Notes: generated from the letters alone by a model not told the origin. Positions 3,388 through 61,388 are shown, counted from the stretch's first letter. The stretch: DNA of 64,000 nucleotides from an uncultured Acidobacteriota bacterium (GCA_963796275.1 CAWCKY010000001.1:480001-544000), one strand, 5' to 3'. A program made the numbers and translations.

Positions 3388-3563
3388 ATCTGGATTTCAT
3401 CGTTTCAGAGCGTCTTCAAGTGAAGACACAGCTACTTGACAGTATTGTGGCGCACAGATAAATTCGCCGCGACTACTACCGATCACGAAATGTGCAGGCA
3501 TTATAAGCGCAATAATTGTTCAAGACCAGAAGCATGATCGCAAACATTATCGGAGGAAAGACT

Positions 3564-4910
3564 ATGAAACGCACTCTCGTTCTTTCACTGAGCGCCGCAA
3601 TTCTCCTGACCTCGGTGATCGTGGATATACCTGTTCTCTCGCAGATGGCGGTTCCGGGCCTGCCCACCGCTAAACCCGAAGATGTCGGTATGTCATCGGA
3701 ACGTCTGGGGCGCATTCGTACTGCGATGCAGCGTTACGTCGACCGCGGGCTCATACCCGGCACGGTAACGCTGGTCGCGCGGCGCGGACGTATTGTGCAT
3801 TTCGAGGCGATCGGTCATCGCGATGTGGAGAAGCGCGCCCCGATGACTACCGATACCATCTTTCGAATCGCCTCGATGACCAAGCCGATCGCTTCAGTCG
3901 CGTTGATGATGCTTTTCGAAGAGGGTCATTTCCTGCTCTCCGATCCAATCTCGAAATTCCTACCCGTGTTCTCAGACATGAAAGTTGCCCAGGTTGCGCC
4001 GGCGAACGAACGCATCGGAGCGCCATATAAACTCGTGCCCGCCGCGAGACCGATCACATTCAAGCATGTCCTGACTCATACGGCCGGATTCCCCAACTCT
4101 TATCGCGGATTGACGCAATCCGAGTTCGGCAAAATCTATTCGCGTAAGAATCCCAATGAAACAGTTGCTGATCTGGTAACCCGGCTGGCCCAAATGCCGC
4201 TCAACTTTCATCCGGGAGATAGTTGGGAATACGGACCCGCAACCGACGTAGCAGGCAGATTGGTCGAGGTCATTTCCGGAACGACGCTCGACGAGTTCCT
4301 GGCCAAGCGGATATTCGAACCGCTGAAGATGAAAGACACACACTTCTATCTGCCTAAGTCCAAGCTCGATCGCTTGGCTGCCAGCTATCAACCGGATGAA
4401 AATAACGGCAACAAGATCAAGCTCTTCGAGGCGCCCAATGCCGAGAGCCCGTTTGTGAAGGAACCGCAGGTCTACTTCTCGGGCGCAGGCGGCCTGGTTT
4501 CGACGGCGGGGGACTACTGGAGATTTCATCAGATGATGCTCAATGGCGGAGAGCTCGATGGCGCCAGGATCCTAGGTCGTAAAACCGTCGAGTTAATCAC
4601 GGCAAATCATACCGGCGATCTCCCACTCTGGCTGACCGGCCCAGGTTACGGTTTTGGTTTGGGCTACAGCGTTGTGAAGGACATAGGTGTAACCAGCCAG
4701 CCTGGCTCAATAGGCAACTACGGTTGGGGAGGTGCGCGCTGCACATTTTTCTGGGTAGACCCCGCAGAGGAGTTGATCGGAATACTCATGACACAGGTCC
4801 GCCCATATAATCACCTCAACATTCGCGCTGAATTTCAGGTGTTGGCCAATCAGGCGATCACCGACCATGTGAAACCGATGAATAAAAACGTCCAGACCAC
4901 GAAGCGCTGA
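3564..4910 (+). CDS. Serine hydrolase, beta-lactamase class C/esterase family, secreted
   Basis: FRIASMTK (SxxK), LLTHT-like VLTHTAG, WEYG, GWGG; RBS ggagg before ATG 3564. Confidence 0.9.
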   Translation: MKRTLVLSLSAAILLTSVIVDIPVLSQMAVPGLPTAKPEDVGMSSERLGRIRTAMQRYVDRGLIPGTVTLVARRGRIVHFEAIGHRDVEKRAPMTTDTIFRIASMTKPIASVALMMLFEEGHFLLSDPISKFLPVFSDMKVAQVAPANERIGAPYKLVPAARPITFKHVLTHTAGFPNSYRGLTQSEFGKIYSRKNPNETVADLVTRLAQMPLNFHPGDSWEYGPATDVAGRLVEVISGTTLDEFLAKRIFEPLKMKDTHFYLPKSKLDRLAASYQPDENNGNKIKLFEAPNAESPFVKEPQVYFSGAGGLVSTAGDYWRFHQMMLNGGELDGARILGRKTVELITANHTGDLPLWLTGPGYGFGLGYSVVKDIGVTSQPGSIGNYGWGGARCTFFWVDPAEELIGILMTQVRPYNHLNIRAEFQVLANQAITDHVKPMNKNVQTTKR

Positions 4911-25060: not shown

Positions 25061-25855
25061 TCACCAACCGGTAGAGAATAGCCGCAACGCCGCATTCGGA
25101 TCACACTTCTGATATTTATTGTAAGCAGCCGCAGCGCGTTTCCTGACGCTCTCTCCGTTCTCCTTCAGTATCCATCCATCGACCGCCGCTTTGAGGACAT
25201 AAGCCTCGGGCGCCATCAGCCCTGTCGTCCACAAAAGGGGATTGGCGCCAGTTTCACGGAGTGGTTTGGCAAAATAGTTTTTGCTGGCGCAGTCGAGAAT
25301 CACGGCATCACGATTTTTCATATCTGATCTTTTGGGATAGGCATCGAGCGAGAAATCCATGAGTCCATCGTGCCCGACATATGCGATCAAATCCGCGCCG
25401 CCCCCGATCTGCAACGCAAGCTTACGCGCGCCCGCCTGGACTGAAAGCGACTCTGAGTTTCGCCCCGCGGTGAAGGCTAAAAAATCTACCGTACACTTTT
25501 TGATCTCCCGCCCGCGATATGCATCAGCGACCAGGTAGAGATCTTTGCTCTGGTGTTTGAAGACCAGCCGTTCGAGGAGTTCAGGTTTCGGCCTCGGAAT
25601 CTCCGCAATCAGATTCCACTCATCAGATTTTTTGAAGAAGGTTTTGACGCCGTAGGCGGCCCCCCAATAGAGGTTGTTGGCGGGATCGTCGCCATTGCCG
25701 ATCCGCGGGGGAACAGGAACGATGCCTTGATATTTGTTATCGCACAATGCCACGAGAACGTGAATCATTCCGGAAGAAAAACGGTCGGCCGTATGAGAAA
25801 GAGAGAGAGGATTAACCACAAACATCACATAAATGACGAAGTACAAAAACCGCAT
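25061..25855 (-). CDS. Conserved-looking secreted hypothetical protein, possible caspase/gingipain-like fold
   Basis: N-terminal hydrophobic segment; AYVGHDG and VILDCAS motifs; start uncertain (25855 or 25900). Confidence 0.7.
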   Translation of the reverse strand: MRFLYFVIYVMFVVNPLSLSHTADRFSSGMIHVLVALCDNKYQGIVPVPPRIGNGDDPANNLYWGAAYGVKTFFKKSDEWNLIAEIPRPKPELLERLVFKHQSKDLYLVADAYRGREIKKCTVDFLAFTAGRNSESLSVQAGARKLALQIGGGADLIAYVGHDGLMDFSLDAYPKRSDMKNRDAVILDCASKNYFAKPLRETGANPLLWTTGLMAPEAYVLKAAVDGWILKENGESVRKRAAAAYNKYQKCDPNAALRLFSTGW

Positions 25856-25905
25856 AAGAAGACGTATATTTTTTGTGCCTTTTGTTATTTTTGCGGTCAT
25901 TGTGA

Positions 25906-26562
25906 TTAATTTCCGGTTCTCAGATTGAGGTCCCTTTCTACTTCCGTTTTAAATTTTATCGGAAGCTGTTCCGGCGTAATAATAAGCGCTATCACCGATT
26001 CATATAGCGCTTTGTAAAACCATGTACGAAACTTAACCGCTTCGAGGATGGAAATTATCGCTGCCGTAAAGCATACGAGGCTGAATATCGCATACCTCCA
26101 AAGATATCCATTGCTGATAAATTCAATTGCGAAAATTACGGTGAAGAATAGCGCCCCCATGCTCGCCCCTCTGAGCATAATGCTCATGACATTGAAGCGC
26201 TCGACATCGTAAGCCATTTCCAGGTTGTGTCGCTTGATGTAGGAGAGCGGTATACTCCAGGGCATCTCCTTTGATTGTACTTCAATGCCGGAATATCTTT
26301 TATTCCACTCCATCATTGTCTTTTCGTGAAGCCGGGTTTTCGGATTGAAAAATCTATACCAATATTTGTTGGCGATTGGATCGATAATGAAGCCGGCAAT
26401 GTACGAGAAGATCGCGAAAAGCGGGAGTTCGATGGTGGATATGCTGGTAAATGTGAAGGCGTAGATTTGATAACGTCGAAGAATATAGAACAGAGCGCCC
26501 AGGAAAATTCCACCGGGAATCGTGCGAGCGAAAAAGTCATATAACCCTATTTTAATACCCAT
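25906..26562 (-). CDS. Hypothetical membrane protein (~4 TM)
   Basis: 218 aa ORF, YDFFARTIPG start, hydrophobic segments, AT-richer than neighbours. Confidence 0.7.
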   Translation of the reverse strand: MGIKIGLYDFFARTIPGGIFLGALFYILRRYQIYAFTFTSISTIELPLFAIFSYIAGFIIDPIANKYWYRFFNPKTRLHEKTMMEWNKRYSGIEVQSKEMPWSIPLSYIKRHNLEMAYDVERFNVMSIMLRGASMGALFFTVIFAIEFISNGYLWRYAIFSLVCFTAAIISILEAVKFRTWFYKALYESVIALIITPEQLPIKFKTEVERDLNLRTGN

Positions 26563-26820: not shown

Positions 26821-27042
26821 TCATCGCACAGAGCTTCGATGAAGACTGACGATCTGCCAACCGCCTCGCCGTTTAAGGCAAAGGATCGTATAGCGGTATT
26901 GCTTCTTTTTTTCTTTGCCTTCTTCCTGGTAGAAGGATTTGCCGGCGAATGTGGCGACCATCGAATTGCCTTCACCATTGAGACTCAGATCGTCTATTTC
27001 GCTCCGATCGATCTTGAGATTGTTATAGCTGACCTCGGCGAT
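26821..27042 (-). pseudogene. Orphan C-terminal half of an NTF2/DUF4440 domain (third unit of the array)
   Basis: IAEV...EIDDLSLNGEGNSMVATF...KRRGGWQIVSLH, homologous to the C-termini at 27179 and 29588; no 5' portion. Confidence 0.8.
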
Positions 27043-27178
27043 GGGGGGAGATTTTGTGCAAAGACGCAAAGAGATTGATTTTTGTGCTTTGCGTCTTTGC
27101 GGTTGTGCCTATGCATCAGATAAATGTTCCACTGAAAAACGCTCTGGGGATTCTCCAATTTTGCCGCACTGTAGCCCC

Positions 27179-28925
27179 CTAGCGCATGAGGCTTACATGA
27201 GAAGCAATCCATAGCCAGCTGCCTTGCCGTTTGACGAGGTTGTCGGTATAGCGTAATCGCACTATCTTCTCTTGGCCGTCCTCCTCGTAGTAGGCTGTCC
27301 CAATAAAGGTGGCAACCATCGAATTGCCTTCTCCCTTGAGACGAAGATCGTCTATTTCAAATTTTGTGATCTTCATCCTTGGATGTTTAATTTCGGCGAT
27401 CACCTCCCCTTTGGATTGGACCTCACCGGATACACCGATCCCCTGGTAATCATCGGCCATCGTACGTTCAATGAACGCTATATCGCGTCTGAAATAAGCG
27501 TCAACGCTCTCATTAATCAGCGCCTTCACTTTATTGGTATCACTCTGGTCTCCCTGTAGCATCTCAGCAGCAGCGGCAGCGACATTCAAATACTGCGGCG
27601 TGGGCTTGGGATTGGGATTGGGTGTGGGCTCGGGATTGGGTATGGGCTTGGGATTGGGCGTCGATGGCGCGAGCGGATCCTGGTCGTTCCTGTCTTTCCC
27701 GGAATCATGCCCGAGCATGTTCGGCAGTGAGACCGTTTGCGCTTTTACGGCAGGCGAGGCAGTTCGATATCTCCTTTTTTTGAATAGAGGCCGACAGATT
27801 GGCGCTCTTCACTATTGCGGCTGTCTCGTTGAGCCCCCGTTGCAACTGTTGCGCAGTGGCCGGGCGATCAGGAACCAGCAATCCCGCCAGCGTGAGTATC
27901 AACACCGCCGGCAAAATCAAATAACGCCATCCTCGTGCGAGCACCCGCACTCGATTCGTATTCAGAACCATCTCGATTCTCCTTTCCAGAGCTTGTTTTG
28001 AAGTGAAGAAAGCCGGTTGGCGCAAACTGTCCGATGCCAGATCATCCAGCTTGCCTTTGACGCTCCGCTCGGCAGCTTTCACCAGGCTTTCCGCATACGT
28101 GGCCGCGTCGGCTCCGTTATTGATCACGCGGTCATCACAGGCCATCTCTCTCTCCAGACAAAACTGCCGGCAGGCGTAGCGCACCAACGGGTGAAAAAAG
28201 AAGGTGACCTTCAGGATCAGGGGTAGCAAATTTGTCAAATGATCGAACCTTGCCACATGCGCCAGTTCGTGCGCGATCATCCCCTCGCGCTCTTCCACCG
28301 ATGTCCATTCCGCCAGGTCCTCCGGCAACAGAATCACCGGATGCCGGATTCCGATCAGCACCGGTGAACGCACATCGGCTGAGAGGCTGAGTGAAACAGA
28401 CTGAGGAATCTCCAATGTAACCCCCAACTCCTCCGGCGTTGTTGTAGAGGCATGCCTGCTCGCTCTGAGCAACCGCCGGAGGCCGCGCACACTGCTAAGC
28501 AAAACAATCAAAGCTCCCGCAAACCATAAGCAAAATGCTCCTGGCAATATGTTAGACGCCCAGTCTATTTTCGGTGCCGCGCTTACCTCCGCCTTGTAGC
28601 CCGCCACAGGGAACCTCATCTCAGCAGCCGGAACGATCACCATGCGCGGCAACTCGGCAGCATAGCTCAATACCGTGCCCTTCCACCGCTGCTCTTGCGG
28701 TAGCGTCGATTTCGGCAACAAGGACGGCCACAATGGCAGAGTGAGGATCGCCAGCATCCCGATCAACCAGATCTGCTGGCGTAACGACGGCGTCTTCACA
28801 CGAAATAACTTCAACCCCGCCCACACGCACACCAACAGCACCAGCGCCTGCCAACTCCACACCAACAAATACAAAGCCGCCTGATCTGCGAACCTCACCA
28901 GAGACTCAATTATTGGATTCATCAT
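27179..28925 (-). CDS. BlaR1-type M56 peptidase + Pro-rich linker + NTF2/DUF4440 domain (copy 2), frameshift in A7 run at 27775-27781
   Basis: IAHELAH, REMACDD, LERRI; removing one base from the A7 run joins the two ORFs; PNPKP-repeat linker. Confidence 0.88.
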
Positions 28926-29329
28926 TTGCCTCCTTTGGCTGTTTGACTCTGCTTGGATGCTGCTCGCGCCGCGATCTTCGTACGCACTTCCCGCAGATCT
29001 TGTTCCGTCAGATCGCCCGTCTCCACCAAATGCAAGACTAGCGATGCGGCCGATCCGTCGAAGACCTGCTTGATCAGGTGCCCCAACACCCGACTGCGCG
29101 ATTTGTCCGGCTGCTGGCACGCCCGATAGACATGGGCCTTGCCCTGCACCCTATGCACCAGATGGCCCTTGCGCTCCAGCACCCGGATGATCGTCAGCAC
29201 ACTGTTGTAATGTCGATCCCCCGGCAGCCGCTCCTGTAATTCCCGGGCAGTCGCCTCGCCCATCTCCCAGATCACTCGCATGATCTCCAGCTCTTTGTCG
29301 GTAAAGGTTTCCGTCGGTGTCTGCGGCAT
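28922..29329 (-). CDS. BlaI/MecI/CopY family repressor (copy 2)
   Basis: ELEIMRVIW, YNSVLTIIRVLERKG, FDGSAASLVLHLV; ATGA overlap with the M56 gene. Confidence 0.93.
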   Translation of the reverse strand: MPQTPTETFTDKELEIMRVIWEMGEATARELQERLPGDRHYNSVLTIIRVLERKGHLVHRVQGKAHVYRACQQPDKSRSRVLGHLIKQVFDGSAASLVLHLVETGDLTEQDLREVRTKIAARAASKQSQTAKGGK

Positions 29330-29345
29330 CTTTACTCCTCAATCT

Positions 29346-29416
29346 ATCAACGTATCCGTCCATTGAAATAAACCATATAGACTCTCTCATATAGTCGTCA
29401 AAGCACTCTAAGTTGA
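29346..29416 (-). promoter_or_regulatory. Promoter and putative BlaI-type operators of unit 2
   Basis: tCAAC-gtatccgtcc-ATTGa and tCAA-agcactctaag-TTGa around TTGACG (-35, 29396-29401 on minus). Confidence 0.6.
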
Positions 29417-29587
29417 TCAGTTAAGCAATGAGCTCGGGTCGATTGGCACGTTTGACGAGATGAGATTGAGCGCAAAGACGCATATGTTGCTCTTTAATTT
29501 TCGTTTTTGCACTCTGTGCTGTTGCATCAGATATATGGTTCCTATGAAAAAAGTTCTAGGAATTCCCACAAATTCCCGTGTCGAGGA

Positions 29588-31297
29588 TTAGTGTTTAAGG
29601 CTCTGATGCCACCCAACGATTTGCCAACCGCCCTGCCTTTTGAGGAAGTTGACGGTCGTGCGGTATTGCACGATTTTCTCTTTTCCACCATCCTCGAAAT
29701 AGTACGTGTGGAGGAAAGTGGCTATCATCGAACTGTCGTCACCCTTTAGACGAAGATCGTCCATGTCAAACTTCGTGATCTTTACCTTGAGATGTTTAAT
29801 TTCGGCGATGTCCTCGCCTTTCGATGAAACCTCACCATTATTGCCTATCCCCTGATAATCATCGGCCAATACGCGTTCAAAGAAATCTATATCGCGCCTG
29901 AGCAGGGCTTCATTGCACTCTCGCAACAGCGCCATCACTATATTCTTATCATTCGTATCTTCCTGTCGCATCTTCCTGACAATACCAGAGTCATTCAAAG
30001 ACTTCGGCGAGGGTTTTGGCGGCGGCATACCTCCTGGCACACCTCCCGGTACACCGGTTGCCACCGGACTTTTCGGCGGTGGTGGTGGTGGCGGCGGCGG
30101 TTCGTCGCCCTTCCGGTTTTTGCGGGAAGCCTGCCGCAATAACAACTTCGGTTGACCACTTGCATCCTCGGGCGCCTTTTGCAACGACGCTGCTCTGTTG
30201 TCGAGCTGCTTTTGCAACTGTTGAGCAGTCGTTGGTTTGCTATTGACCAGTACCCCAGCCAACGCGATGATCAACAGCGCCGGCAGAATCAAATATCGCC
30301 ATCCTCGCGCCAGCACCCGTACTCGTTTTGTGTTCAATACCATCTCGATCCTCCTCTCTAGAGCTTGTTTTGAAGTGAAGAAAGCCGGCTGATGCAAACT
30401 GTACGACGCCACATCTTCGAGCTTTCCTTTGACGCTCCGTTCCGCCGCTTTCACCAGGCTTTCCGCATACATCGCCGCGTCAGCCCCACGATCAATCACC
30501 CTGTCATCACACGCAATCTCTCGCTCCAGACAGAACTGCCGGCAGGCGTAACGCGCCAGCGAATGAAAAAAGAAGATCACGTTCAGCGCGATAGGAACCA
30601 AATTCGTCATATGATCGAGCCTCGCCACATGCGCCAGTTCGTGCGCGATCATCGCCTCCCGCTCTTCTACCGATGTCCATTCGGCGAGGTCCTGCGGCAA
30701 CAGAATCACCGGATGCCGGATACCGATCAGCACCGGTGAACGCACTTCTGCAGACAGTTTGAGTGAAACAGCGCGAGGAAGCCCCAGAGCGATGCCCAAC
30801 TCCTCCGCCGTTGTTTGAGCCGCATGCTTGCTTGCTCTGCGCAACCGCGTGTAACCGCGCGCGCTACGAAGCAAGGTAATTAAGGCTCCCGCAATCCATA
30901 AACAAAATGCAGCAGGCAGTACTCTAGACAGCCAGTGTTTTTTCGGCGGCACGGTCCCGGCTATGTGCTCCGTTACAGGAGGGTTCCCGGCGTCTGAAGC
31001 GGGAATGATGACAAGGCGCGGCAACTCCGTCGCATAACTCAAGGCTGTCCCCTTCCACGGCCGCTCTTGCGCCAGGGTCGATTTCGGGATCAAGCGCGGT
31101 AAGAGCGGTAGTGTGAGAACCGCCAGCAGACTGATCAGCCAGATATGCTGGCGCAACGACGGCGTCTTCACCCGAAACAACGCCAACCCAACCCACACGC
31201 ATACCAACAGCACCAGCGCTTGCCAACTCCATACCAGCAGTTCCAACCCCGCCTGATTAGCGAACCTCATCAGAGGATCAATTAATGGGTTCATCAT
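29588..31297 (-). CDS. BlaR1-type M56 peptidase + poly-Pro linker + NTF2/DUF4440 domain (copy 1, intact)
   Basis: IAHELAH, REIACDD, P10 linker, RRDIDFFERVLADDY...WQIVGWHQS. Confidence 0.92.
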   Translation of the reverse strand: MMNPLIDPLMRFANQAGLELLVWSWQALVLLVCVWVGLALFRVKTPSLRQHIWLISLLAVLTLPLLPRLIPKSTLAQERPWKGTALSYATELPRLVIIPASDAGNPPVTEHIAGTVPPKKHWLSRVLPAAFCLWIAGALITLLRSARGYTRLRRASKHAAQTTAEELGIALGLPRAVSLKLSAEVRSPVLIGIRHPVILLPQDLAEWTSVEEREAMIAHELAHVARLDHMTNLVPIALNVIFFFHSLARYACRQFCLEREIACDDRVIDRGADAAMYAESLVKAAERSVKGKLEDVASYSLHQPAFFTSKQALERRIEMVLNTKRVRVLARGWRYLILPALLIIALAGVLVNSKPTTAQQLQKQLDNRAASLQKAPEDASGQPKLLLRQASRKNRKGDEPPPPPPPPPKSPVATGVPGGVPGGMPPPKPSPKSLNDSGIVRKMRQEDTNDKNIVMALLRECNEALLRRDIDFFERVLADDYQGIGNNGEVSSKGEDIAEIKHLKVKITKFDMDDLRLKGDDSSMIATFLHTYYFEDGGKEKIVQYRTTVNFLKRQGGWQIVGWHQSLKH

Positions 31298-31701
31298 TTG
31301 CCTCCATTGGCTGCTTGACCCTTCTTGGACGAAGTTCGCGCCGCGATCTTCGTACGCACTTCCCGCAAATCGTCTTCGGTCAGATCTCCCGTCTCCACAA
31401 GATGCAAAACCAGTGATGCGGCCGATCCCCCGAAGACCTGCTTGATCAGGTGCCCCAACACACGGCCCCGCGATTTGTCCGGCTGCTGGCGCGCCCGGTA
31501 GACGTGAGCCTTGCCCTGCGCCCGGTGCGTCAGATGCCCCTTGCGCTCCAGCACCCTGATGATCGTCAGCACGCTGTTGTAATGGCGCTCACCCGACAGC
31601 CGCTCCTGAATCTCCCGCGCCGTCGCCTCGCCCATCTCCCAGATCACCTGCATGATCTCCAGCTCCTTGTCAGTGAAAGTTTTTGTCGGCGTCCGTGGCA
31701 T
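31294..31701 (-). CDS. BlaI/MecI/CopY family repressor (copy 1)
   Basis: Near-identical to copy 2; RBS ggagg; ATGA overlap with the M56 gene. Confidence 0.93.
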   Translation of the reverse strand: MPRTPTKTFTDKELEIMQVIWEMGEATAREIQERLSGERHYNSVLTIIRVLERKGHLTHRAQGKAHVYRARQQPDKSRGRVLGHLIKQVFGGSAASLVLHLVETGDLTEDDLREVRTKIAARTSSKKGQAANGGK

Positions 31702-31726
31702 CTTTCCTCCTCCTTATTTAATTAAC

Positions 31727-31795
31727 CAACGTATTTATCCGTTGATGCGGACTATAATGAGTTCGCATGCGATTGTCAACGTATTTTTTAGTTGA
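31727..31795 (-). promoter_or_regulatory. Sigma70 promoter bracketed by two CAAC-N10-GTTG operators
   Basis: Minus-strand TTGACA (31774-31779) -17 bp- TATAGT (31751-31756); CAACgtatttatccGTTG 31727-31744 and TCAACgtattttttaGTTGA 31776-31795. Confidence 0.75.
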
Positions 31796-32073
31796 TTAAT
31801 TCAAGAGACGTTGGCACCGCAGTCAACCGTGGTCAGTGGAGGAGCAGGTACAGACTCACTCTCCAAAACGTACCCAACCCGGGCCGTTCAGCTTATCTAT
31901 AGACTGGGAATTTTGGACGGGTGTTTTTACTGGGCCGGTTCTTCTGCAATTCTTCCAATGCGAACTGGACTGCGCGTTCGAGTGTGCATCCCGCCCCGCT
32001 CGCCAATCGGCCGGGCGTTCTCGGATAGTTTCAATTGTTTGGGCATCGAGCAGAAAACACGCGGCGCGGAAGG

Positions 32074-39286: not shown

Positions 39287-39920
39287 TCAATTTCCGGCGC
39301 CCAGATCGAGCCGAATAACCGAAGCCAAATCGCTCGGAGCCCTCTCCGGAAGCTGCAAAACCAATTTTCCATCCGCCTGTGTGAACTTCAGCCCTCTGCG
39401 TTGCGGGTCGGATAGCAGATAGGCTTTCATGACCTTATCCTTCATGCCTTCCACCGAGAACTCTTTCGTCCAGGTGAAGAGGTGGATGTATATCCGGCCG
39501 GGCTTGGCCGTCGCGCGCCATTCTTTCGCCTGTTCGAAGACCGGCTGTCCGCGCTGATCTTTGTTCGTCTCGCTCGCTTTACCGAATTCCGCTCCGAATG
39601 GAGTCGGTCTTGCGCCGTAGATCGCCTCGCCATTCACCTTCAGCCATTGCCCGACCTTGCGCAGGATATCCACGCTTGGCTGCGGAATGACGCCTTCGGC
39701 AGTGGGACCGACGTTGAGCAGGTAATTTCCGCCCTTGCTCACAATGTCAACGAGTTTAAATACGATCTCTGCTGGCGGTTTCCAGTCTTGGTCGTAGCTC
39801 TTATAGCCCCACGTATGGTTGATCGTCGCCGGCACTTCCCAGACGCCGGGGACGACCTGATCGGGGATGCGGTTGTCGCCCGTCGAACGGTAGTCACCCT
39901 TGCCGCCGAGACGGCCGCTG
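39287..39920 (-). pseudogene. C-terminal part of a GH29 alpha-L-fucosidase
   Basis: GRLGGKGDYRSTGDN...WEVPATINHTWGY, LVDIVSKGGNYLLNVGP..EG, WLKVNGEAIYG; N-terminus lost. Confidence 0.85.
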
Positions 39921-42135
39921 TGCCGATCGGCGGCATGCCGGTGGTGCAGTATGGGCGATAGAGCACCGGCGCATTGGCGGGATTGAAGAGCGCCGGATCG
40001 AAGTTCGAGGCATCATCAAGACGCTGACGCCACTGTGAATACCAGCCCATTCGCAATCCGAAGTTCAGACTGACCCGCGCGTTCACTTTCCACTGGTCCT
40101 GTACATACCATTGCGCGAGCATCCTCTCGAGGTCCGTATGGGGACGGGCAGATGACTCGGAATAACCCCTGAAACTGCCGATGAGAGCGTTCGCATATGG
40201 ATGGCCTGTATTTCCGAGGGCGGCGGAGTAATTGCCGTCGTTGCTGCTGAAGTTGAATGTCCCGGACCAGTTGCCTCCCGGAGCCTCACCATTCCGCAGA
40301 CGCTCGATATAGACGCCCATCTTGTAATTGTGATTGCCTCGATTGATCGTGAGATTATTTGAGATCGACGGGAGGACATAATCCTCACCGACCTCACCCC
40401 AGCGATCGAGCCAGTTAATATTGGCTACCGTCGTGTTGGAAAAGCCGCCCCAACCGGTAGCTCGCGGGATCGTGCCGAGCGTATTGTTGCCGGGAAATAG
40501 TTGGGGTGCTGTGTAGTTCAGCGTGCTCCTGGCGAGACGCTCTACCTCGCCATCGGACGGAATGAAACCTTCTGAACTATGACGCAAGCCGACCGATACT
40601 TCGTTGACAACAGTCGGGCTGAAAATCCGTACCCAGTTGAACACTACGCCATCATCCTGGTACAGGTAATGCGAGTTGATCCCCCACCTATTATTGCCCC
40701 CGCCTGGCCATCCGGAAGTGTCGAACCCCTCATTATCTGATGTCCACGTCGATAGATTCACGTAGAAACTGTTTTTCTCCGTAGGTTTGAAATCAACGCG
40801 CATGACCTGGCTCAATTTCGGCACGTCAACGCTCTTCTGAACAACATAATTGTAGAAGTCCCCGGTCGCGATGCGGCCGTTCAGTGCATTTGGTAAAGGG
40901 AAGAAATTCAGCAGCGCCACACCGCTCTGATTCAACCGGTCGCGCGGAATTATATTTAAGCCCTGCGGGTTGTCCGGAGTCGCGCGCGAAGGATCGCGAA
41001 AACACGCCGTCTGATCGGTTGAAGTGCAATTTCCCGACAAAAGAGGATCGCGCACGAAAGCTTTGTTTGGGACCCCGCTCGAAGAAAGCGATCTAAATGA
41101 CTGCGAGAAATCGCCCTGTCGCTCACGTTCAGTGGGCACCGTCACAAATTTGGCGCTCTGTGGTGTAATCGTGTGAGGGCGCTCCAGTGAATAGAAGAAG
41201 AAGAGATGCTTCTTCTCTCTGTTGGGATACAGCAACGGCACGCGGACCGGCCCGCCGAAGTTGAAGCCCCAGATGTTATGCCGGTAGAGTCCCCTGGGCA
41301 GACCCACTTTATTATTGAAAAACTCATTGGCATTGAGCGCTTCATTGCGGAGGAAGTAGTAACCACTGCCGTTATAATCCTGCTTACCGCTCTTGGTGAC
41401 TATATTGATGTGAGCGCCGCCCTGGTTACCATACTCTGCCGCATAGTTATTGCGCAGAACCTTGACCTCTTCGACAGCGTCCTGGTTGATGGTCAGGCTC
41501 AACTTGTTGGAACCGCTCACGTCGTTGCCCATCAAGCCATTGACCGAAGCGATATTGGATCGCCCGCGTTGTCCCGAGACGTTGGGCAGATCGGTGCCGA
41601 AGCCTTCACCCACGGATTCGACGTCATCTACATAGGAGACTCCGGGTAGCAAACGCAAGAGAGAAGTGACGTCGCGCCCTTTCGTCGAGATCAGGCTGAT
41701 CTGATCGGAGGTCAGTCGCGCTGTAAGATCGCTGCCCTCCTTCTCAATCACAGCGCCTTCCGCCACCGTGGTGACTACTTCACTCACCTGGCCTACCTCC
41801 ATTATCAGCTTGCCCAACGCTAGATGTTCATTGGCGCTCAGGATGGTGTTCTTGCGCTCGAACCCGCGAAACCCCGAGGCATCTATTCTGATCGTATAAA
41901 CGCCTGGTTGCATTGCCGGTAGGCTGAAATCGCCCACCTCATTGGTAGTGGAAGTGCGCACGCTCCCATTTCGCTCGTCGAGGACCTTGACCCTGGCTCC
42001 GGTTATGACCTTGTCCGCTGCATCGAAGACCGTGCCTGTTATCGTTCCCGTGACCGTCTGGGCGAAAGAGAGAGTGAAAGTGATCAGCGTGCATATCAAC
42101 ACGCACAGAATGAAACGTAGTCTGTTGCTAGACAT
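39921..42135 (-). pseudogene. Oar-type TonB-dependent receptor, 3'-truncated
   Basis: CarboxypepD_reg N-terminus, DAVEEVKV..NYAAEYG, RNEALNANEFF, YVQDQWKV..LNFGLR, then fused to fucosidase DNA. Confidence 0.85.
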
Positions 42136-42372: not shown

Positions 42373-45300
42373 TCAAAAACTAAATCTCAGCCCGAATTGC
42401 AACTGCCTGGGGGCCGTGCCGCTGGCCAGGTTCGTCACCCTCCCGACATTGGGAGCGATTTGAGTCGCATTAGTATTGATGGTGAGGTTCGTTGGGGCAT
42501 CGTAGTTTTGGACATTGAACACATTGAACGCTTCGAAGCGCAATTGCAGGTTCCACCCTTCGCGCACCGGGAAGCTCTTGAACATCGAGAAATCCATATT
42601 GAAGGCGCGCGGTCCTCTGAACACATTGCGGCCCAGGTTTCCGAAGGTCCCGGTGGGGATAGCGAATGCGCACGCATTGAACCAACTGCTGGAAGTGCGC
42701 ACCTCATCGGCGGCGCGCCCGCCCTGTGAAACCGTTCTCTGGCAATTCGGGTCGGGGTTCGCGGCTACCGGGCCCGCCACAAACGGATCAGCGATCAAGT
42801 TAGGGCGAAGGTAGTTGCCCGGAGGATTCGGTGCGCTCCCACGCAGGTTCGCGAGGTCACCCGCAACCTGCAGAGTGTATGGCTGTCCCGATCGTGCCTG
42901 CAGGATGTAGTTCGCCTGCCAGTTGCCCAGAATCCATGAAGCCGGACCGCTCTGCAGCCATCGCTTCCCTCGCCCCGCCGGAAGCTCATAGACCGTGGCC
43001 CACGAGAAGAAGTGTGTGATGTCGTATGACGATACGCCCCGGGCTGTGCTCTGATCATAGAAGTTTTGAATGGTCGACCCTCCGCCCAGACCGTTTTCAA
43101 CGTTGAAATAGCCGCTGCTCACGTCGGTCGATTTACTCCAGGTATAGGAGACTAACGTCTGCAAGCCGTCCGCAAATCGCCGCTGGAACCTTGTCTGTAA
43201 TGCGTTGTAATTGGAATAGCCCGTGCTCAAAGTGTAATTGATGTTCGCATTCACCCATGGCATCGGCCGCAAAGCGTCTACCGAGTCATTGAACGCCGCA
43301 GTGCAGGCGGCATCGCCTGCCGCGCAGGGATTCCTCGAAGCCTGCCGCGCGGTATTGGCGAAACCGGAATAAGGCAGCCTTCCGTTCTTGCTTCCGACGT
43401 ATGCAGCTGATACCACCGTAGTCGGCGTCAGCTCACGCTGAAACTCGAGATGCCACTGCTGTGAGTAACCATCCTTGTAATTGGGATCATCGCCGAACGT
43501 ATTGAATGGAGACCATGGATCGGTCGTCGGCAATGGGTTGGCAAATCCCTGGCCCTGCAGTTGAATGATGTTGGACGGCGTGCCGTTCACGAAGGCGGCA
43601 GGAGTATTCGCCGCTCCCCCAAAAGCAGTCGCGTCAGGCCATACCGCCAGCTCCAGATCGTTCTGCGCGTATTGGCTGCTGCGCGGGGACTGCATCCCAG
43701 TAGAGCCCGTAGCCCGCCCGCAGGACCGTCCTCGGATTGATCGCCCACGCCAGACCAATGCGCGGCCCCCAGTTGTCCTTCACTGGTTGAGGCGCGAAGA
43801 ATTCTTTGCCCGCAACTACCACGTTGTTGAAGTGAGGATCCGTCAGAAATGCATCCGGGATGCAGGGAGCCTGACCAGCCGCGCTGCACAGCGGCGGCAT
43901 CTCCCGCGCCCCGATAATCCAGCGCTGATTCGGCAGATCGAGCGCGTTCCAGAGCCGCCCATCCAGCGTTTTCGGCTGGGTCAGGTAATCGTAGCGCAAG
44001 CCCAAACTCAGCGTCACGTTGGACCTCACCTTCCATTCGTCCTGCAAATACGCCGCCCACGCGGCATACTTGAATTGGACCGGACCGCCGTGTTCGATCG
44101 GCAATTGAGCCTGAAAGTCATTGGGCAGACCCAGCAGGGCAGAGGCCAGCGACAAGCCCGTCGGAGTCGAGGTTCCCGGGTTGCGAGTCTGTTCGTCACT
44201 GAAGTTGTAACGCTGAAAGGTATTCAACTGGATGCGCTTGGCCTCAATGTACCAGAAACCAGTCTTGATGTTGTGCCGGCCTTTCAGCCAGATCAGGTTC
44301 GGCGTGATGCTCCAGTTCGGGTTCCCGCGTGGCGCAGCGCCGCGCACGCCGAAATCGTTATTGCCGCCGTTGGTCCAGTTCGCCGTATGAGTCGCACCAG
44401 CAAACCACCGTATTTGTCGATGTCGCCGAAACCGAGTTGCTTCATAGGCTCTATCCCCGCTTCGTGCTGATTCGACTGGCCGGAGTCCTCGCCCGGCCTG
44501 CCGGCATATCCTGCGCGCACATCGAGGATGTGTCTCGGACTGAAACTGTGCGTCCAGCCGCCGCCGTAATTCCTGCCCGCCGAACTGCCCCCGGTCGATC
44601 CGGCCTGTCCGATCGGATTGATCACCGTCACCCGGTGCTCGGTATAGCGGAAGAAGATATTGTCGGCATCGTTGAAGCGGTGATCGACTCTCACCTGAAA
44701 ACTATTCGAGTCGTTGGTCGTCGGCCGCGTTTGAACGAAGTTGTTTGTTGCATCCCCCGTAAAATTGGGGGTTGCCGAGTAGGCCTGGAAGAACTGCTGC
44801 ATCGGCGCGAAGATCAGCTCCTGCGGAAGCTTGTTGCAGGGAATCCCGAGGGCCTGGTCTTGCTGCCTCTGCGCATTCACCGGCAGCGGATTCCCCACCG
44901 CATCGCACCTGAAACGGTCACGGGTGAACGAAGCACCAACCCGCCTGGTGGAATATGGATTGTAAATGTCCCGGCGAATGCTCGAATTGGTGAAGTCTCC
45001 AGCTATCTCGGCGGCCGTCGGCACATAGGACAGGTTCAGGCTGGGCTGACTGTAGCGCCATCCGTCATAGCCGGCGGAGAAGAATGTTCGGTTCTTGACG
45101 ATCGGGCCGCTTACGACTGCGCCGAACTGGTTCTGGCGGAACGGCACGGGGCTGTCCGGCACAAGCTGGCCGAGTCGGCACCTCGCCGATGTACAGACAT
45201 CGAGGCCATTCCGCGCGTCGAACGCGTCGTTGCGCACATACTCGAAGGCCGCGCCGTGTATGCCATTGCCCCCGGACTTCGAGACCATGTTCATGATGCC

Positions 45301-46041
45301 GCCGGTGGCGCCGCCGAATTCGGACTTGGCGTCATGACCGACGACTTTGAACTCCTGAACCAGGTCGATGTTCGGAATTACGATGTATGTGGGCCCGCGG
45401 ATATTGGTGTTGATGATGCCGTCGAAAAAGTAGAGCTTCGAGCGGTTCTGCTGGCCGTGGAATGAAGGATCGGAAAAACCCGATCCGGGAATCCCGATAT
45501 TCCCCTCGACCCCGCCTACGTTTCTATTCTGTGAAGTGGAGACCGGAGTCACCCCGGGCGTGAGCGTCAGGAGCTGCGTGAAGTTCCTGCCATTCAGCGG
45601 CAGGTCCTGGACTACCCGCTCCTGAATCACGGTGCCCAGCTCGGACGAAGATTGCTGCACCAGCTCTCCCTCCGATGACACTTCCACAGTCTGGTTAACA
45701 TCGCCTACTGCCAACGGAACATTGCGTGTTACTGTCTGGTTGACCCCGACATCGAAATTAGGTACCTGTGCAGTTTTGAACCCCTGGGCTTCGACCCTGA
45801 GCACATACGTCCCGGGCCTGACATTGACGAGCGTAAAGAAGCCGCTCTCATTGGTTACCACCTGCGTTTCGATCTGTGTCGCCTGATTGACCAGTTTTAC
45901 GACCGCAGCCGGGACTCCCGCTCCCGCCTGATCGGCGACTGTTCCATTGACCTCGCCCGTAGCTGTCTGCGCGAAGCACTCCAACCCCCATCCAATAAGC
46001 GCTACCAACATCAATGACGATATCGCTCTCAATAGAATCAT
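42373..46041 (-). CDS. Oar-type TonB-dependent receptor, two single-base frameshifts (~44390, ~43683)
   Basis: DLPLNGRNF, RNDAFDARN, YLQDEWKV, FGNLGRN, RFEAFNVFN, PRQLQFGLRFSF end; three ORFs join colinearly. Confidence 0.88.
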
Positions 46042-52769: not shown

Positions 52770-53706
52770 ATGGAGCTCATCACGCCCGCCGAATCGGCGG
52801 CGGCGCATTCAACGGGAGTCGCGGCGGAGCTATCCTCCAAAAGGCTAGGCTTCGGCGAAAGACTGTCCGCATATCTCGATCTAACGAAACCTCGAATCAC
52901 ATTTCTAGTAGTCCTCTCCGCATTGGCAGGTTTTGCGTTGGGTTCTCCGTCATCGCTCGATTGGCAGGTGTTCGCTCATACGGCATTCGGAATCGCCTTG
53001 CTCTCGAGCGGCATCGGAACGCTCAATCAATATATGGAGAGGCGGCTGGACTCATTGATGCAGCGCACGAAGAGCCGGCCGTTGCCGATGGGGAAATTGC
53101 CGCACAGACACGCATTATGGTTTGGCATCGCGATTTCGGTTTATGCGGAAATTCACCTCGCCTGGTTCGTCAACGCGATGACCGCCGTCCTGGGACTGGT
53201 CGCGCTCACGAGTTATCTTTTTCTCTATACCCCGCTCAAAACTCGCACGCACTGGTGCACCTTCGTCGGGGCGTTCCCCGGGGCGCTCCCGCCCCTGCTC
53301 GGATGGGCGGCCGCACGTAATGGGCTTGGCATTGAGGCCCTGGTATTGTTCGGGATAATGTTTCTCTGGCAATTTCCCCATTTCCATGCGATCGTCCATG
53401 ATGTACCGGGATGATTACGCGCGCGCTGGCATCCGTATGCTCCCGGTCGTCGAGCCCGACGGAAGATCGACTGCGCGGCAGATCGCCGGTTACACGCTCG
53501 CTCTGGTATTCGTGAGTTTGTTGCCCGCTTATTTCAACTTTTCCGGCTGGATGTATCTGGCAGGAGCGATCGTTCTCGGTGCGGCATTTCTCTATGTCAG
53601 CCTGATAACCGCGCGGAAGATGACGTATGATCATTCCAGGCTATTGCTCAAGGCGTCGGTATTGTACTTGCCCTTATTGCTGGGATTGATGGTTATGAAC
53701 CGATAA
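52770..53706 (+). CDS. cyoE: Protoheme IX farnesyltransferase (heme o synthase), frameshift near 53394
   Basis: LTKPRI, D.LMQRTKSRPL, YTPLK, WQFPHF, then YRDDYARAGIRMLP in the next frame. Confidence 0.92.
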
Positions 53707-60189: not shown

Positions 60190-61388
60190 GTACTTTGGCA
60201 ACTATGTGATTTGACACGCGGATCACCATTCCCAGAGCATGGGAAAATGAAAAAACGGCACGTCAAATTAAAAGCAAAAGACCGGGACTATCTGGAGTCC
60301 CTGATCTCCAAGGGGAAATTACCGGCCAAAACTTTCAAGCGAGCCACGGGCTTGCTCGAACTTGATCGCGGCAAGACACTCGAAGCGGTAGCCGAAACCC
60401 TCGGCGTCAGCCGAGTGACGGTCATGGCCTGGCGTGATAAGTACAAAGAGCAAGGCCTCAAGTGCCTGGAAGATGCCCCGCGGTCGGGACGTCCGCCGGA
60501 GATCGACGGCAAGTTGCGAGCGAAGATCACAGCCTTGGCCTGCAGCGAAGCGCCCGAAGGGCATGTGCGTTGGACTTTGCGGTTGTTGGCCGATAAGGTG
60601 GTCGAGATGGGTTATTGCGAAGAGATATCCAAGACCCATATTGGCAACATCCTGAAAAAAACGAACTGAAACCGCACCTCAACAAGACTTGGTGTCTTGG
60701 TAAGATCGACGCGAAGTTTCTCGCGCAAATGGAGGAGATTCTCCGGTTGTATGCGCTGGCCTATGATCCAAACTACCCGGTGGTCTGCTTCGACGAGCGC
60801 CCGTGCTTCTTGATCGGGGAGGAGGTTGAACCGCTGGCGATGCAAAGCGGCCAAGTCCGCAAAGAGCATTACGCTTATCAGAAGAACGGATCGTGTGCAG
60901 TGCTAGCTGCCATCGAACCACTGACCGGGCAAAGACTCGCGCAGGTCTCTTGGCAACGTACTAAGAAAGAGTTCACGCAGTTCGCTCAGAGACTGGCAGC
61001 AGCATATCCGGAGGCCAAAAAGATTCGACTCGTGCTGGACAATTTAAACACCCACCACGCCGGTTCCTTCTATCAAAACTTGCCGGCGGCGGAGGCCTTT
61101 GCGCTGGCGCAACGTTTCGAGTTTCACTATACGCCCAAGTCTGCCAGTTGGCTCAACATGATCGAGTGTGAATTCTCGGCGGTGGCGCGTCAGTGTTTAA
61201 ACCGGCGCATCCCGACTATTAAGCAACTGGAGAGAGATGTCTCGGCGATTATCAAAGAACGTAACGAAAAGAAGATCAAAATCAACTGGCAATTTTCGAT
61301 CGAGTCTGCGAGAAACAAATTGAATCGTCATTATCAGAACGTTTTGCCCGATAATTCAAGATATCTGAAGACTTAGTTGCCAAAGTAC
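60190..61388 (+). mobile_element. IS630-family insertion sequence, 1199 bp
   Basis: Perfect 15 bp IR GTACTTTGGCAACTA / TAGTTGCCAAAGTAC; TA duplicated in a CTAG target (60188-60189, 61389-61390). Confidence 0.93.
60247..61376 (+). CDS. IS630 transposase (OrfA HTH + OrfB DDE joined by -1 frameshift)
   Basis: PRSGRPP, WTLRLLA; A7 run 60655-60661; FDE, VLDNLNTH, SWLNMIE. Confidence 0.9.

Follow-up and report, generated by a model that had tools for sequence, protein, structure and literature searches.

A tandem array of BlaI repressor and M56-NTF2 genes

We analysed a 64,000-nucleotide (nt) stretch of DNA from an uncultured Acidobacteriota bacterium (GCA_963796275.1 CAWCKY010000001.1:480001-544000), referred to as the window, which contains a tandem array of genes for BlaI-type repressors and for M56 proteases that end in an NTF2-like domain. 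All genes of the array are on the minus strand of the window and form unit A, unit B and an orphan NTF2 piece, termed unit 3. The units consist of a BlaI repressor gene followed by the sequence for an M56 protease, a Pro-rich linker and an NTF2-like domain. The direct repeats are spaced by 2372 nt over the BlaI/M56 part and by 2409 nt over NTF2, corresponding to units of 2.37-2.41 kb. Gene layout, Pfam matches and repeat spacing agree with the original prediction, made from the sequence alone, of two units of approximately 2.4 kb plus an orphan NTF2 half. The matches to PF03965, PF05569 and PF14534/PF13474 are all above their cut-offs (31 for Peptidase_M56, 25.2 for PF14534), and the three C-terminal pieces are recognized as DUF4440/SnoaL_3/CaMKII_AD. 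The observation of such an array is far beyond chance. Judged from its sequence, unit A is intact, unit B is of uncertain integrity and unit 3 is a stump. The two larger units contain the following features (lengths in amino acids, aa):

31294..31701, minus strand: blaI-type repressor gene of unit A, 135 aa (PF03965, 99.6 bits); its stop overlaps the start of the M56 gene
29588..31297, minus strand: M56/linker/NTF2 gene of unit A, 569 aa
30239..31297, minus strand: M56 transducer/protease core of unit A, aa 1-353, with four membrane helices (PF05569, 122.9 bits)
30629-30643, minus strand: HELAH of unit A, aa 219-223
30503-30526, minus strand: EREIACDD of unit A, aa 258-265
29960..30238, minus strand: predicted extracytoplasmic linker of unit A, aa 354-446, residues 378-428 modelled as disordered
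30074-30100, minus strand: run of nine prolines of unit A
29588..29959, minus strand: NTF2-like domain of unit A, aa 447-569 and stop codon, sensor type 1 (PF14534, 47.8 bits; AlphaFold2, Foldseek and tree)
28922..29329, minus strand: blaI-type repressor gene of unit B, 135 aa (PF03965, 93.8 bits)
27705..28925, minus strand: M56 core and linker start of unit B, 406 aa as assembled (Pfam M56 match, 121 bits)
28257-28271, minus strand: HELAH of unit B
27179..27718, minus strand: linker and NTF2-like gene part of unit B, sensor type 2 (PF14534, 56.6 bits; tree)
27596-27658, minus strand: PNPKP-type linker repeats of unit B
27182-27550, minus strand: NTF2-like domain of unit B

The module is of the BlaI/BlaR1 type

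The repressors belong to the winged-helix BlaI type (Penicillinase_R), and residues 8-117 of the BlaI protein align with MecI (1okr, E 1.2e-9) and BlaI (1sd4). A family profile matches BlaR1 of S. aureus (8exp, E 7e-8) with the HEXXH motifs aligned, and 74 aligned sequences show no variation at the H, E, H, D, E and D residues of the zinc site HEXXH...ExxxD. The AlphaFold2 model of full-length unit A protein (predicted local distance difference test, pLDDT, 81.5) is confident for the M56 core and for NTF2. Foldseek searches with this model retrieve BlaR1 (8exs/8ext, E ~4e-5) for the core and NTF2-like proteins for the C-terminus, where a transpeptidase or beta-lactamase-type domain is absent and a DUF4440/SnoaL_3 domain of NTF2-like fold is found instead.

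Hydropathy analysis places helices at residues ~20-38, 52-70, 125-143 and 335-353 and a re-entrant-like stretch at 230-248, in agreement with the helices of the AlphaFold2 model, and the loops on the protease side of the helices are rich in K/R. According to the available text of PMC9834060, BlaR1 has an N-out/C-out topology with its sensor outside. By analogy, the M56 protein would also be N-out/C-out with the protease facing the cytoplasm, and it would be expected to cleave BlaI in a signal-dependent way. Since the NTF2 domain follows the last membrane helix, homology to BlaR1 makes it extracytoplasmic, and because the genome encodes at least 65 outer-membrane barrel proteins this location would correspond to the periplasm. 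The proposal of a BlaI/BlaR1-type module, in which an NTF2-like domain that is extracytoplasmic by homology occupies the place of the penicillin-binding sensor, is thus upheld.

Sensor domains are ancient and transducer cores are mixed

A search of a collection of 5.8 billion proteins yielded 114 matches. Both M56 and DUF4440 are present in 51 of them, the window's own protein included; at least 50 other database clusters share the architecture, the closest relatives being 70-80% identical. We inferred a tree of 55 NTF2 domains, with branch support from the Shimodaira-Hasegawa-like approximate likelihood ratio test (SH-aLRT). The NTF2 domain of unit A (type 1) clusters with P0002-P0006 (SH-aLRT 96; top identity 81%), that of unit B (type 2) with P0008, P0017 and P0025 (SH-aLRT 99; top identity 93%) and the orphan (type 3) with P0009-P0012 and P0016 (SH-aLRT 100; top identity 83%). 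Because each of the three domains has its own clade of orthologues in soil metagenomes, they represent ancient, separately conserved paralogue types.

The types also differ in the segment that connects the membrane to the NTF2 domain. This segment contains the proline-rich linker alone in type 1, HEAT repeats (P0008, P0025) or two CxxCH motifs (P0017) in type 2, and HEAT repeats plus one CxxCH in type 3. A run of at least five prolines is found approximately 25 residues ahead of the NTF2 domain in 43 of the 52 family members; type-3 proteins have CxxCH in its place. In P0017 the two CxxCH motifs are ~29 residues apart and are accompanied by several additional histidines; P0009-P0012 and P0016 have one CxxCH each. 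The motifs of P0017 and of the type-3 proteins resemble attachment sites of c-type haem, which would make these proteins candidates for redox or haem sensing.

A tree of 24 M56 cores, in which the types had been named beforehand from the NTF2 tree, gives a different picture. The sensor types are intermixed: P0009 (type 3) pairs with P0006 (type 1; longest contig 116,869 for both), P0008 (type 2) with P0005 (type 1; support 99/97), and P0016 (type 3) with P0014/15 (support 100/98). Approximately unbiased (AU) tests on this tree reject each type as a clade (type 3, p=0.004; type 1, p=0.010; type 2, p=0.009). Since the M56 cores do not follow the sensor types, the simplest reading is that the BlaI/M56 halves of adjacent units have been exchanged or homogenized by recombination, while the heads stayed distinct. 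Inspection by eye of alignment A2 shows that extracellular loop 1 tracks the M56 core, not the sensor type; the idea that this loop co-varies with the sensor type, as expected from BlaR1, was dropped on these grounds.

Units A and B are old, constrained paralogues

The BlaI proteins of units A and B are 86.7% identical (86.2% at the nt level). Identity is 74.2% for M56 residues 1-365 (78.4% nt), falling to 53.8% in the first outside loop, and 59.2% for NTF2, while the linkers cannot be aligned. Identical stretches shared by the units reach at most 32 nt, and no recent conversion tract is visible between the units of the window genome. BlaI and M56 core are thus less similar than the original prediction, which had called them nearly identical, would have it. 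Its description of the linkers holds for the PNPKP-type repeats of unit B but not for a run of ten prolines, since the run in unit A has nine. The shared DNA that it had placed downstream of the units is confirmed: approximately 100 nt 3' of each unit's stop codon are common to both units, with 72% identity.

We asked whether the array is DIVERSIFYING. The ratio of nonsynonymous to synonymous divergence (dN/dS, Nei-Gojobori) between units A and B, which the original prediction had named as a check for each domain, is below 1 in every part: 0.17 for BlaI, 0.29 for M56 (0.13 if restricted to the protease core) and 0.36 for NTF2. The corresponding dS values are 0.45-0.62 for the N-terminal parts and 0.81 for NTF2. 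The differences between the two NTF2 domains had been described as clustered. They are in fact evenly spread over helix (14/33), strand (24/66) and coil (13/24), and between the modelled dimer interface (12/31) and the remainder (39/92; Fisher p 0.83); the clusters that had been listed are short stretches around invariant residues. An even spread is the very outcome that had been named beforehand as speaking against duplication followed by diversification, and neither the dN/dS values nor the old orthologue clade of each NTF2 type agrees with that scenario. Of the suggestion that the variable residues line the NTF2 pocket one part stands: three positions equivalent to the ligand pocket of the CaMKII hub differ by type, as detailed below, but the substitutions as a whole show no clustering.

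The NTF2 domain is a confidently folded, predicted dimer

The NTF2 domain of unit A is modelled by AlphaFold2 with a pLDDT of 91.9, and Foldseek gives template modelling (TM) scores of 0.84-0.91 to solved NTF2-like proteins (2r4i, 3ksp, 3fsd). Its top fold matches are the uncharacterized bacterial proteins 2r4i, 3fsd, 3ksp and 3h51 together with CaMKII hub domains, and the CaMKII hub family is also the best sequence-level match to the C-terminal half (E 2.5e-4). Modelled as a homodimer, the domain scores 0.79, compared to a best score of 0.00 among three controls, with a partner pLDDT of 89 and runs that agree in 100% of contacts. A score of 0.79 was reached by 20 of 30 proteins solved as one-chain pairs and by 1 of 23 solved as single chains, counts that are approximate since we supplied an alignment of our own; moreover, the pass may reflect likeness to solved NTF2-like dimers. 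The domain is thus predicted to be a dimer.

The modelled interface contains the family-invariant residues R546, T548 and H564. The ligand-binding residues of the CaMKII hub, given as Arg433, Thr435, Arg453 and Arg469 in the available text of PMC11400628, fall on L529, T531, V549 and Q565 in a gap-free HMMER alignment. T531 is near-invariant; the other three positions differ by type (L/I/V, V/D/I and Q/V/R for types 1 to 3). The V549 and Q565 positions are fixed within every type, and the L529 position is weak in type 3, with V in 0.4 of the rows. L529 and V549 lie outside the listed dimer interface, Q565 being the exception. In these models the conserved face of the domain looks like a dimer contact, and the type-specific residues look as if they occupy the small-molecule site of a related domain. 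The hub alignment and the interface list were used here in place of inward or outward facing of beta-strand residues deduced from residue alternation, which we dropped as unreliable.

Two operator-like boxes flank the promoter of unit A

The following sites lie upstream of the two blaI genes:

31777..31796, minus strand: operator-like box 1 (ATCAACTAAAAAATACGTTG), overlapping the -35 hexamer
31751..31779, minus strand: promoter-like site of unit A, TTGACA, 17-nt spacer, TATAGT, 11/12 consensus positions
31727..31746, minus strand: operator-like box 2 (ATCAACGGATAAATACGTTG), 4 nt 3' of the -10 hexamer
29347..29401, minus strand: weaker promoter-like site of unit B, TTGACG, 18-nt spacer, TATGGT, 9/12
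29347-29366, minus strand: single degenerate box of unit B

Both boxes of unit A are 20 bp long with the core CAACG-N8-CGTTG. The sequence of box 1 recurs in locus L025 and, with one change, in L017/L018, and box 2 is kept in L025, in L017/L018 (inverted) and in L005. In L025, L017/L018 and, more loosely, L005 the pair lies ahead of blaI at the same positions, and since the DNA between the boxes is unrelated this amounts to a phylogenetic footprint. In the 9.46-Mb genome the only sites with at most one mismatch from the box consensus are boxes 1 and 2; one site with two mismatches (C2:719446) is about what is expected by chance. The module is very probably autoregulated, as judged by the conservation of the boxes across loci and their uniqueness in the genome. 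This had been proposed originally, and the two 20-bp boxes around the promoter, conserved in distant loci while the spacer DNA is not, argue for it. In L013 and L020 internal units start ~20 nt after the preceding gene, so that arrays can be transcribed as operons.

Unit B carries a frame break as assembled and unit 3 a deletion

These features define the state of units B and 3:

27747-27761, minus strand: CLACR of unit B (CLACH in its orthologue P0017)
27707..27719, minus strand: frame break of unit B, 13 nt (tblastn frames -3 and -1 against P0017)
26821-27069, minus strand: orphan open frame holding the NTF2 C-terminal half
26821..27054, minus strand: remnant of unit 3, last 77 codons of a type-3 NTF2 domain and stop codon (tblastn; tree, SH-aLRT 100)
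27048..27057, minus strand: approximate deletion junction of unit 3, where similarity to the inter-unit spacer ends (homology to P0012 begins at 27054)

The original prediction had overlooked that M56 and NTF2 of unit B are in different reading frames. The M56 frame ends at 27705, and the linker and NTF2 continue in another one. In tblastn alignments residues 1-345 of P0017 correspond to 28757-27720 and residues 386-548 to 27706-27182 in a second frame. Forty codons of P0017 are thereby matched by 13 nt of unit B, which equals a length difference of 108 nt plus one nucleotide. Unit B is without the 36-residue stretch that bears the second CxxCH of P0017, and in the first motif it has CLACR where P0017 has CLACH. 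Slippage at the A8 run (~27775-27782) was rejected as the cause of the frame change, since homology of the M56 frame to P0017 extends to 27720, with the switch to the other frame at 27706. Two readings seem about equally likely to us: that unit B is intact, its 1-nt break being an assembly error, and that it was recently broken.

The 1-nt break is weak evidence of decay, because the assembly also breaks gyrB, rpoB, rpoC and one copy of tuf. The single gyrB is split by a frame change (G000 C6:471685-474873, L085), the rpoB-rpoC stretch (C6:1265800-1274700) is cut into open frames of 130-370 codons, and the tuf copy is broken at C6:1279772-1280243. In contrast, the class-I aminoacyl-tRNA synthetase genes are whole in 4 of 4 cases, and so are the 65 barrel genes with the highest scores; the assembly errors are thus patchy. 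Eight contig pieces (151-281 nt) from two soil-metagenome runs (shares 0.13 and 0.10) include none that spans 27707-27719 or 27048-27057. Split or broken genes in this assembly should be given no biological reading without read-level confirmation.

The remnant of unit 3 (27054-26824) matches residues 706-782 of P0012 with 88% identity in tblastn, and it is 82% identical to P0010. The shared inter-unit spacer reaches to ~27057 and then passes directly into this coding remnant, which argues for a deletion of more than 2 kb that removed blaI and the first ~705 M56 codons of unit 3. The stump carries K in place of a T conserved in 89% of the family; within its clade it forms the longest terminal branch.

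Further loci of the window contain split or incomplete genes. A UbiA-family prenyltransferase gene (52770-53706, plus strand) is split into two overlapping frames that cover profile positions 1-160 and 163-237, due to either a frameshift or an assembly error. A TonB-type outer-membrane barrel gene (CarboxypepD_reg and OMP_b-brl_4; 42373-46041, minus strand) is spread over three frames. In the barrel gene next to it (39739-42135) the profile match breaks off at position 414 of 838, and behind it comes a fragment with the final 68 residues of an alpha-L-fucosidase domain (39287-39835). Finally, an IS630-like transposase gene (60211-61376, plus strand) is made up of two overlapping frames (HTH_32/HTH_29, then DDE_3).

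Relatives and genomic neighbourhood

A scan of metagenomes yielded 74 loci with relatives of at most 49% identity; a scan of genome contigs with the unit A protein yielded no relative. In 40 related genomes the M56 part has matches of 43-51% identity at best (G001, G004, G021). The genome behind the G004 match (L004; M56 51%, NTF2 49%) is flagged as unpublished, and the match is used for no other claim here. Thirteen metagenome loci were informative, meaning that they have an NTF2 match or at least two M56 matches. Consecutive units occur in nine of these 13 (L012, L013, L014, L015, L019, L020, L022, L026 and L033), and a half-deleted M56 gene is present in L014/L033. Arrays and the loss of units thus appear to be typical of the family. 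A full-text search of a limited library retrieved no paper on M56 fused to DUF4440 or on a BlaR1/M56/NTF2 architecture.

In the window the array is flanked by an alginate-lyase-family gene, a GH88-family gene and genes without a Pfam match; neighbouring genes vary from locus to locus. Two of the genes without a Pfam match lie directly downstream on the same strand (25061-26562, minus strand) and have a lower G+C content (0.43-0.49). One encodes a multi-helix membrane protein of 218 aa and the other a protein of 279 aa with a hydrophobic stretch at its N-terminus, and both could be co-transcribed with the array. None of the neighbouring genes encodes a beta-lactamase, as had been stated originally. 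The nearest PF00144 gene (beta-lactamase/serine hydrolase family; 3516-4910, plus strand) is ~22 kb away, and no link to the array was seen. Conserved hairpins are found ~80 nt past the stop codon of each unit, with no U-run behind them:

29468..29514, minus strand: hairpin in the shared DNA 3' of unit A, 12 bp
27058..27100, minus strand: hairpin in the shared DNA 3' of unit B, 14 bp, perfect

They might function as terminators, processing sites or stabilizers.

Discussion

The reading we consider probable is that the array consists of tandem, autoregulated BlaI/BlaR1-type modules of an unstudied subfamily, in which ancient sensor types sit on recombining transducers. In this proposed mechanism BlaI dimers on the two boxes, one over the -35 and one just past the -10 hexamer, would silence the operon. 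A long and largely disordered linker with a rigid polyproline run would carry the NTF2 domain beyond the cytoplasmic membrane, where a periplasmic NTF2 dimer would receive a signal and relay it through the membrane. The most likely signal would be a small molecule in the cone-shaped NTF2 pocket, whose lining differs by sensor type. The M56 protease would then cut BlaI, and the array would be derepressed. Over time, the stretch between the membrane and NTF2 would have gained and lost modules such as HEAT repeats and CxxCH motifs.

With BlaI/BlaR1 and MecI/MecR1 of S. aureus the module shares a repressor gene that overlaps the M56 gene and the HEXXH...ExxxD motif; four membrane helices and a C-terminal domain outside are predicted here in line with BlaR1. 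Two operator or operator-like sites on the regulator's own promoter are also common to it and BlaI/BlaR1, the boxes being predicted in our case. BlaR1 acts as a dimer (available text of PMC9834060), and here the outside domain is modelled as one. However, where BlaR1/MecR1 have their penicillin-binding (SXXK) sensor, the M56 protein has a polyproline-containing linker of ~90 residues followed by an NTF2-like domain, the latter being a new kind of outside domain on a BlaR1-like module. Moreover, unlike in the bla and mec systems of S. aureus, there is no nearby beta-lactamase or PBP2a gene under control of the array, the host has two membranes, and the units are paralogues arranged in tandem whose sensors differ. 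Atypical BlaIR systems (M. tuberculosis Rv1846c/Rv1845c, M. abscessus, P. aeruginosa PvmSR) likewise combine M56 with a BlaI-type regulator, have no assigned signal and are unrelated to beta-lactam resistance; as far as the available part of the preprint goes (10.64898/2026.08.03.742534), they are without an outside domain, whereas the proteins described here have a well-folded one in several conserved types.

The extracytoplasmic domains DUF3828, DUF3887 and DUF4878 also place an NTF2-like cone on the outer side of membrane proteins with a signalling or hydrolase portion, and Eberhardt et al. (2013) proposed that such a domain regulates the linked one via non-catalytic ligand binding (PMC3924330). 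Our domain, in contrast, is DUF4440/SnoaL_3, and the accessible text of PMC3924330 mentions M56 with DUF4352 only, with no link to NTF2-like domains. The CaMKII hub and its bacterial homologues (1hkx, 5ig3, 3h51, 3ksp) are oligomerizing NTF2-like domains with a small-molecule pocket (available text of PMC11400628). The hub, however, forms a ring of 12-14 subunits, compared to the dimer modelled here, and its three pocket arginines are replaced by L/I/V, V/D/I and Q/V/R.

Several observations weigh against the reading we favour. The positions of the scissile pair of BlaI, Asn101-Phe102 in the available text of PMC9834060, are His-Leu here, within a conserved SLVL-x-x helix. L015 (3921-7999) and L022 (3773-6243) have two consecutive M56 genes, the first of which carries the NTF2 domain, and their upstream 3.7-3.9 kb lack blaI. 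A repressor gene beside the protease is thus not a constant feature. No neighbour gene is conserved across 11 related loci and no output gene was found there, and a search of the genome for the operator dyad and the 20-bp box revealed no further operator site with at most one mismatch. An intact three-unit array elsewhere is indicated by just two proteins, both with a longest contig of 116,869. The substitutions between the units are enriched at no surface, and the pocket was mapped from a remote alignment of 53 columns (E 0.003). Finally, the signal, the ligand and the proteolysis are all proposals.

Alternative readings concern the role of the NTF2 domain, its history and the state of the array. 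The domain might be no receptor at all, but a dimerization or docking module on a periplasm-spanning polyproline spacer, comparable to the C-terminal domain of TonB. We regard this as rather unlikely, and the same applies to the accompanying idea that the signal is received by extracellular loop 1, by the HEAT/CxxCH modules of other paralogues or by a partner near the outer membrane. The invariant polar residues R546, T548 and H564 lie in the modelled interface instead of at the pocket positions, an oligomerization hub, that of CaMKII, is among the best matches in sequence and fold, other M56 proteins bear TonB_C or other non-enzymatic C-terminal domains, and the polyproline spacer is found in most members (43/52). 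However, three types that were long kept apart despite a shared interface call for a type-specific function, it is the pocket-equivalent positions that are fixed differently per type, and many NTF2-like dimers also bind ligands (available text of PMC3924330). Another reading holds that the units form a modular combinatorial periplasmic sensor, with interchangeable BlaI and M56 parts that recombination keeps alike and that act on one shared operator, at least three anciently fixed heads whose pocket linings differ, optional HEAT/c-type-haem (CxxCH) modules between membrane and head, and mixed pairing of heads. Heads of different units could pair because the modelled interface is invariant across types, and with two or three units a cell would then respond to signal combinations via a single promoter; as a whole this appears improbable to us.

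Least probable, and very much so, is a recently duplicated sensor whose NTF2 pocket diversifies under positive selection, with NTF2 possibly released as an effector. It would fit that the C-terminal domain is the most diverged part (59% compared to 74-87% aa identity) and that the three hub-pocket-equivalent positions differ by type. The scenario is largely refuted by the orthologues that each NTF2 type has elsewhere at 81-93% identity, and a dN/dS of 0.36 with a dS of 0.81 in NTF2 indicates old, constrained divergence; the even spread of the substitutions, the longest identical run of 32 nt and the fact that nothing seen points to a release of NTF2 also speak against it. A decaying relic, with unit B truly frameshifted, unit 3 deleted and an array that no longer signals, strikes us as about as improbable as the combinatorial sensor. 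The different frames of M56 and NTF2 in unit B, its missing 36-residue stretch with the second CxxCH, the R for H in its first motif and its degenerate promoter boxes are in line with decay, as are the stump of unit 3 with K at a near-invariant T and the degenerate M56 gene found within the L014/L033 arrays. Unit A, its promoter and both boxes, on the other hand, are intact, both blaI genes are intact with a dN/dS of 0.17, and the terminal branch of the unit B NTF2 domain is no longer than those of its orthologues (0.064 compared to 0-0.12); with gyrB, rpoB, rpoC and one copy of tuf likewise broken in the assembly, a 1-nt break carries little weight.

BlaI/BlaR1 is the textbook example of regulated proteolysis in signalling, but the understanding of it is limited to beta-lactams and Gram-positive pathogens. 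In environmental genomes, M56/BlaI pairs that respond to something other than beta-lactams are abundant. The subfamily described here is tractable, since its outside domain is small, confidently folded, probably dimeric, has a predicted pocket and comes in several conserved types. The unit A promoter with its two operator-like boxes could serve as a reporter, and natural variants swap the modules between membrane and sensor. Finally, the mismatch between the sensor tree and the transducer tree would be a tidy example of how two-part sensors evolve by the exchange of parts.

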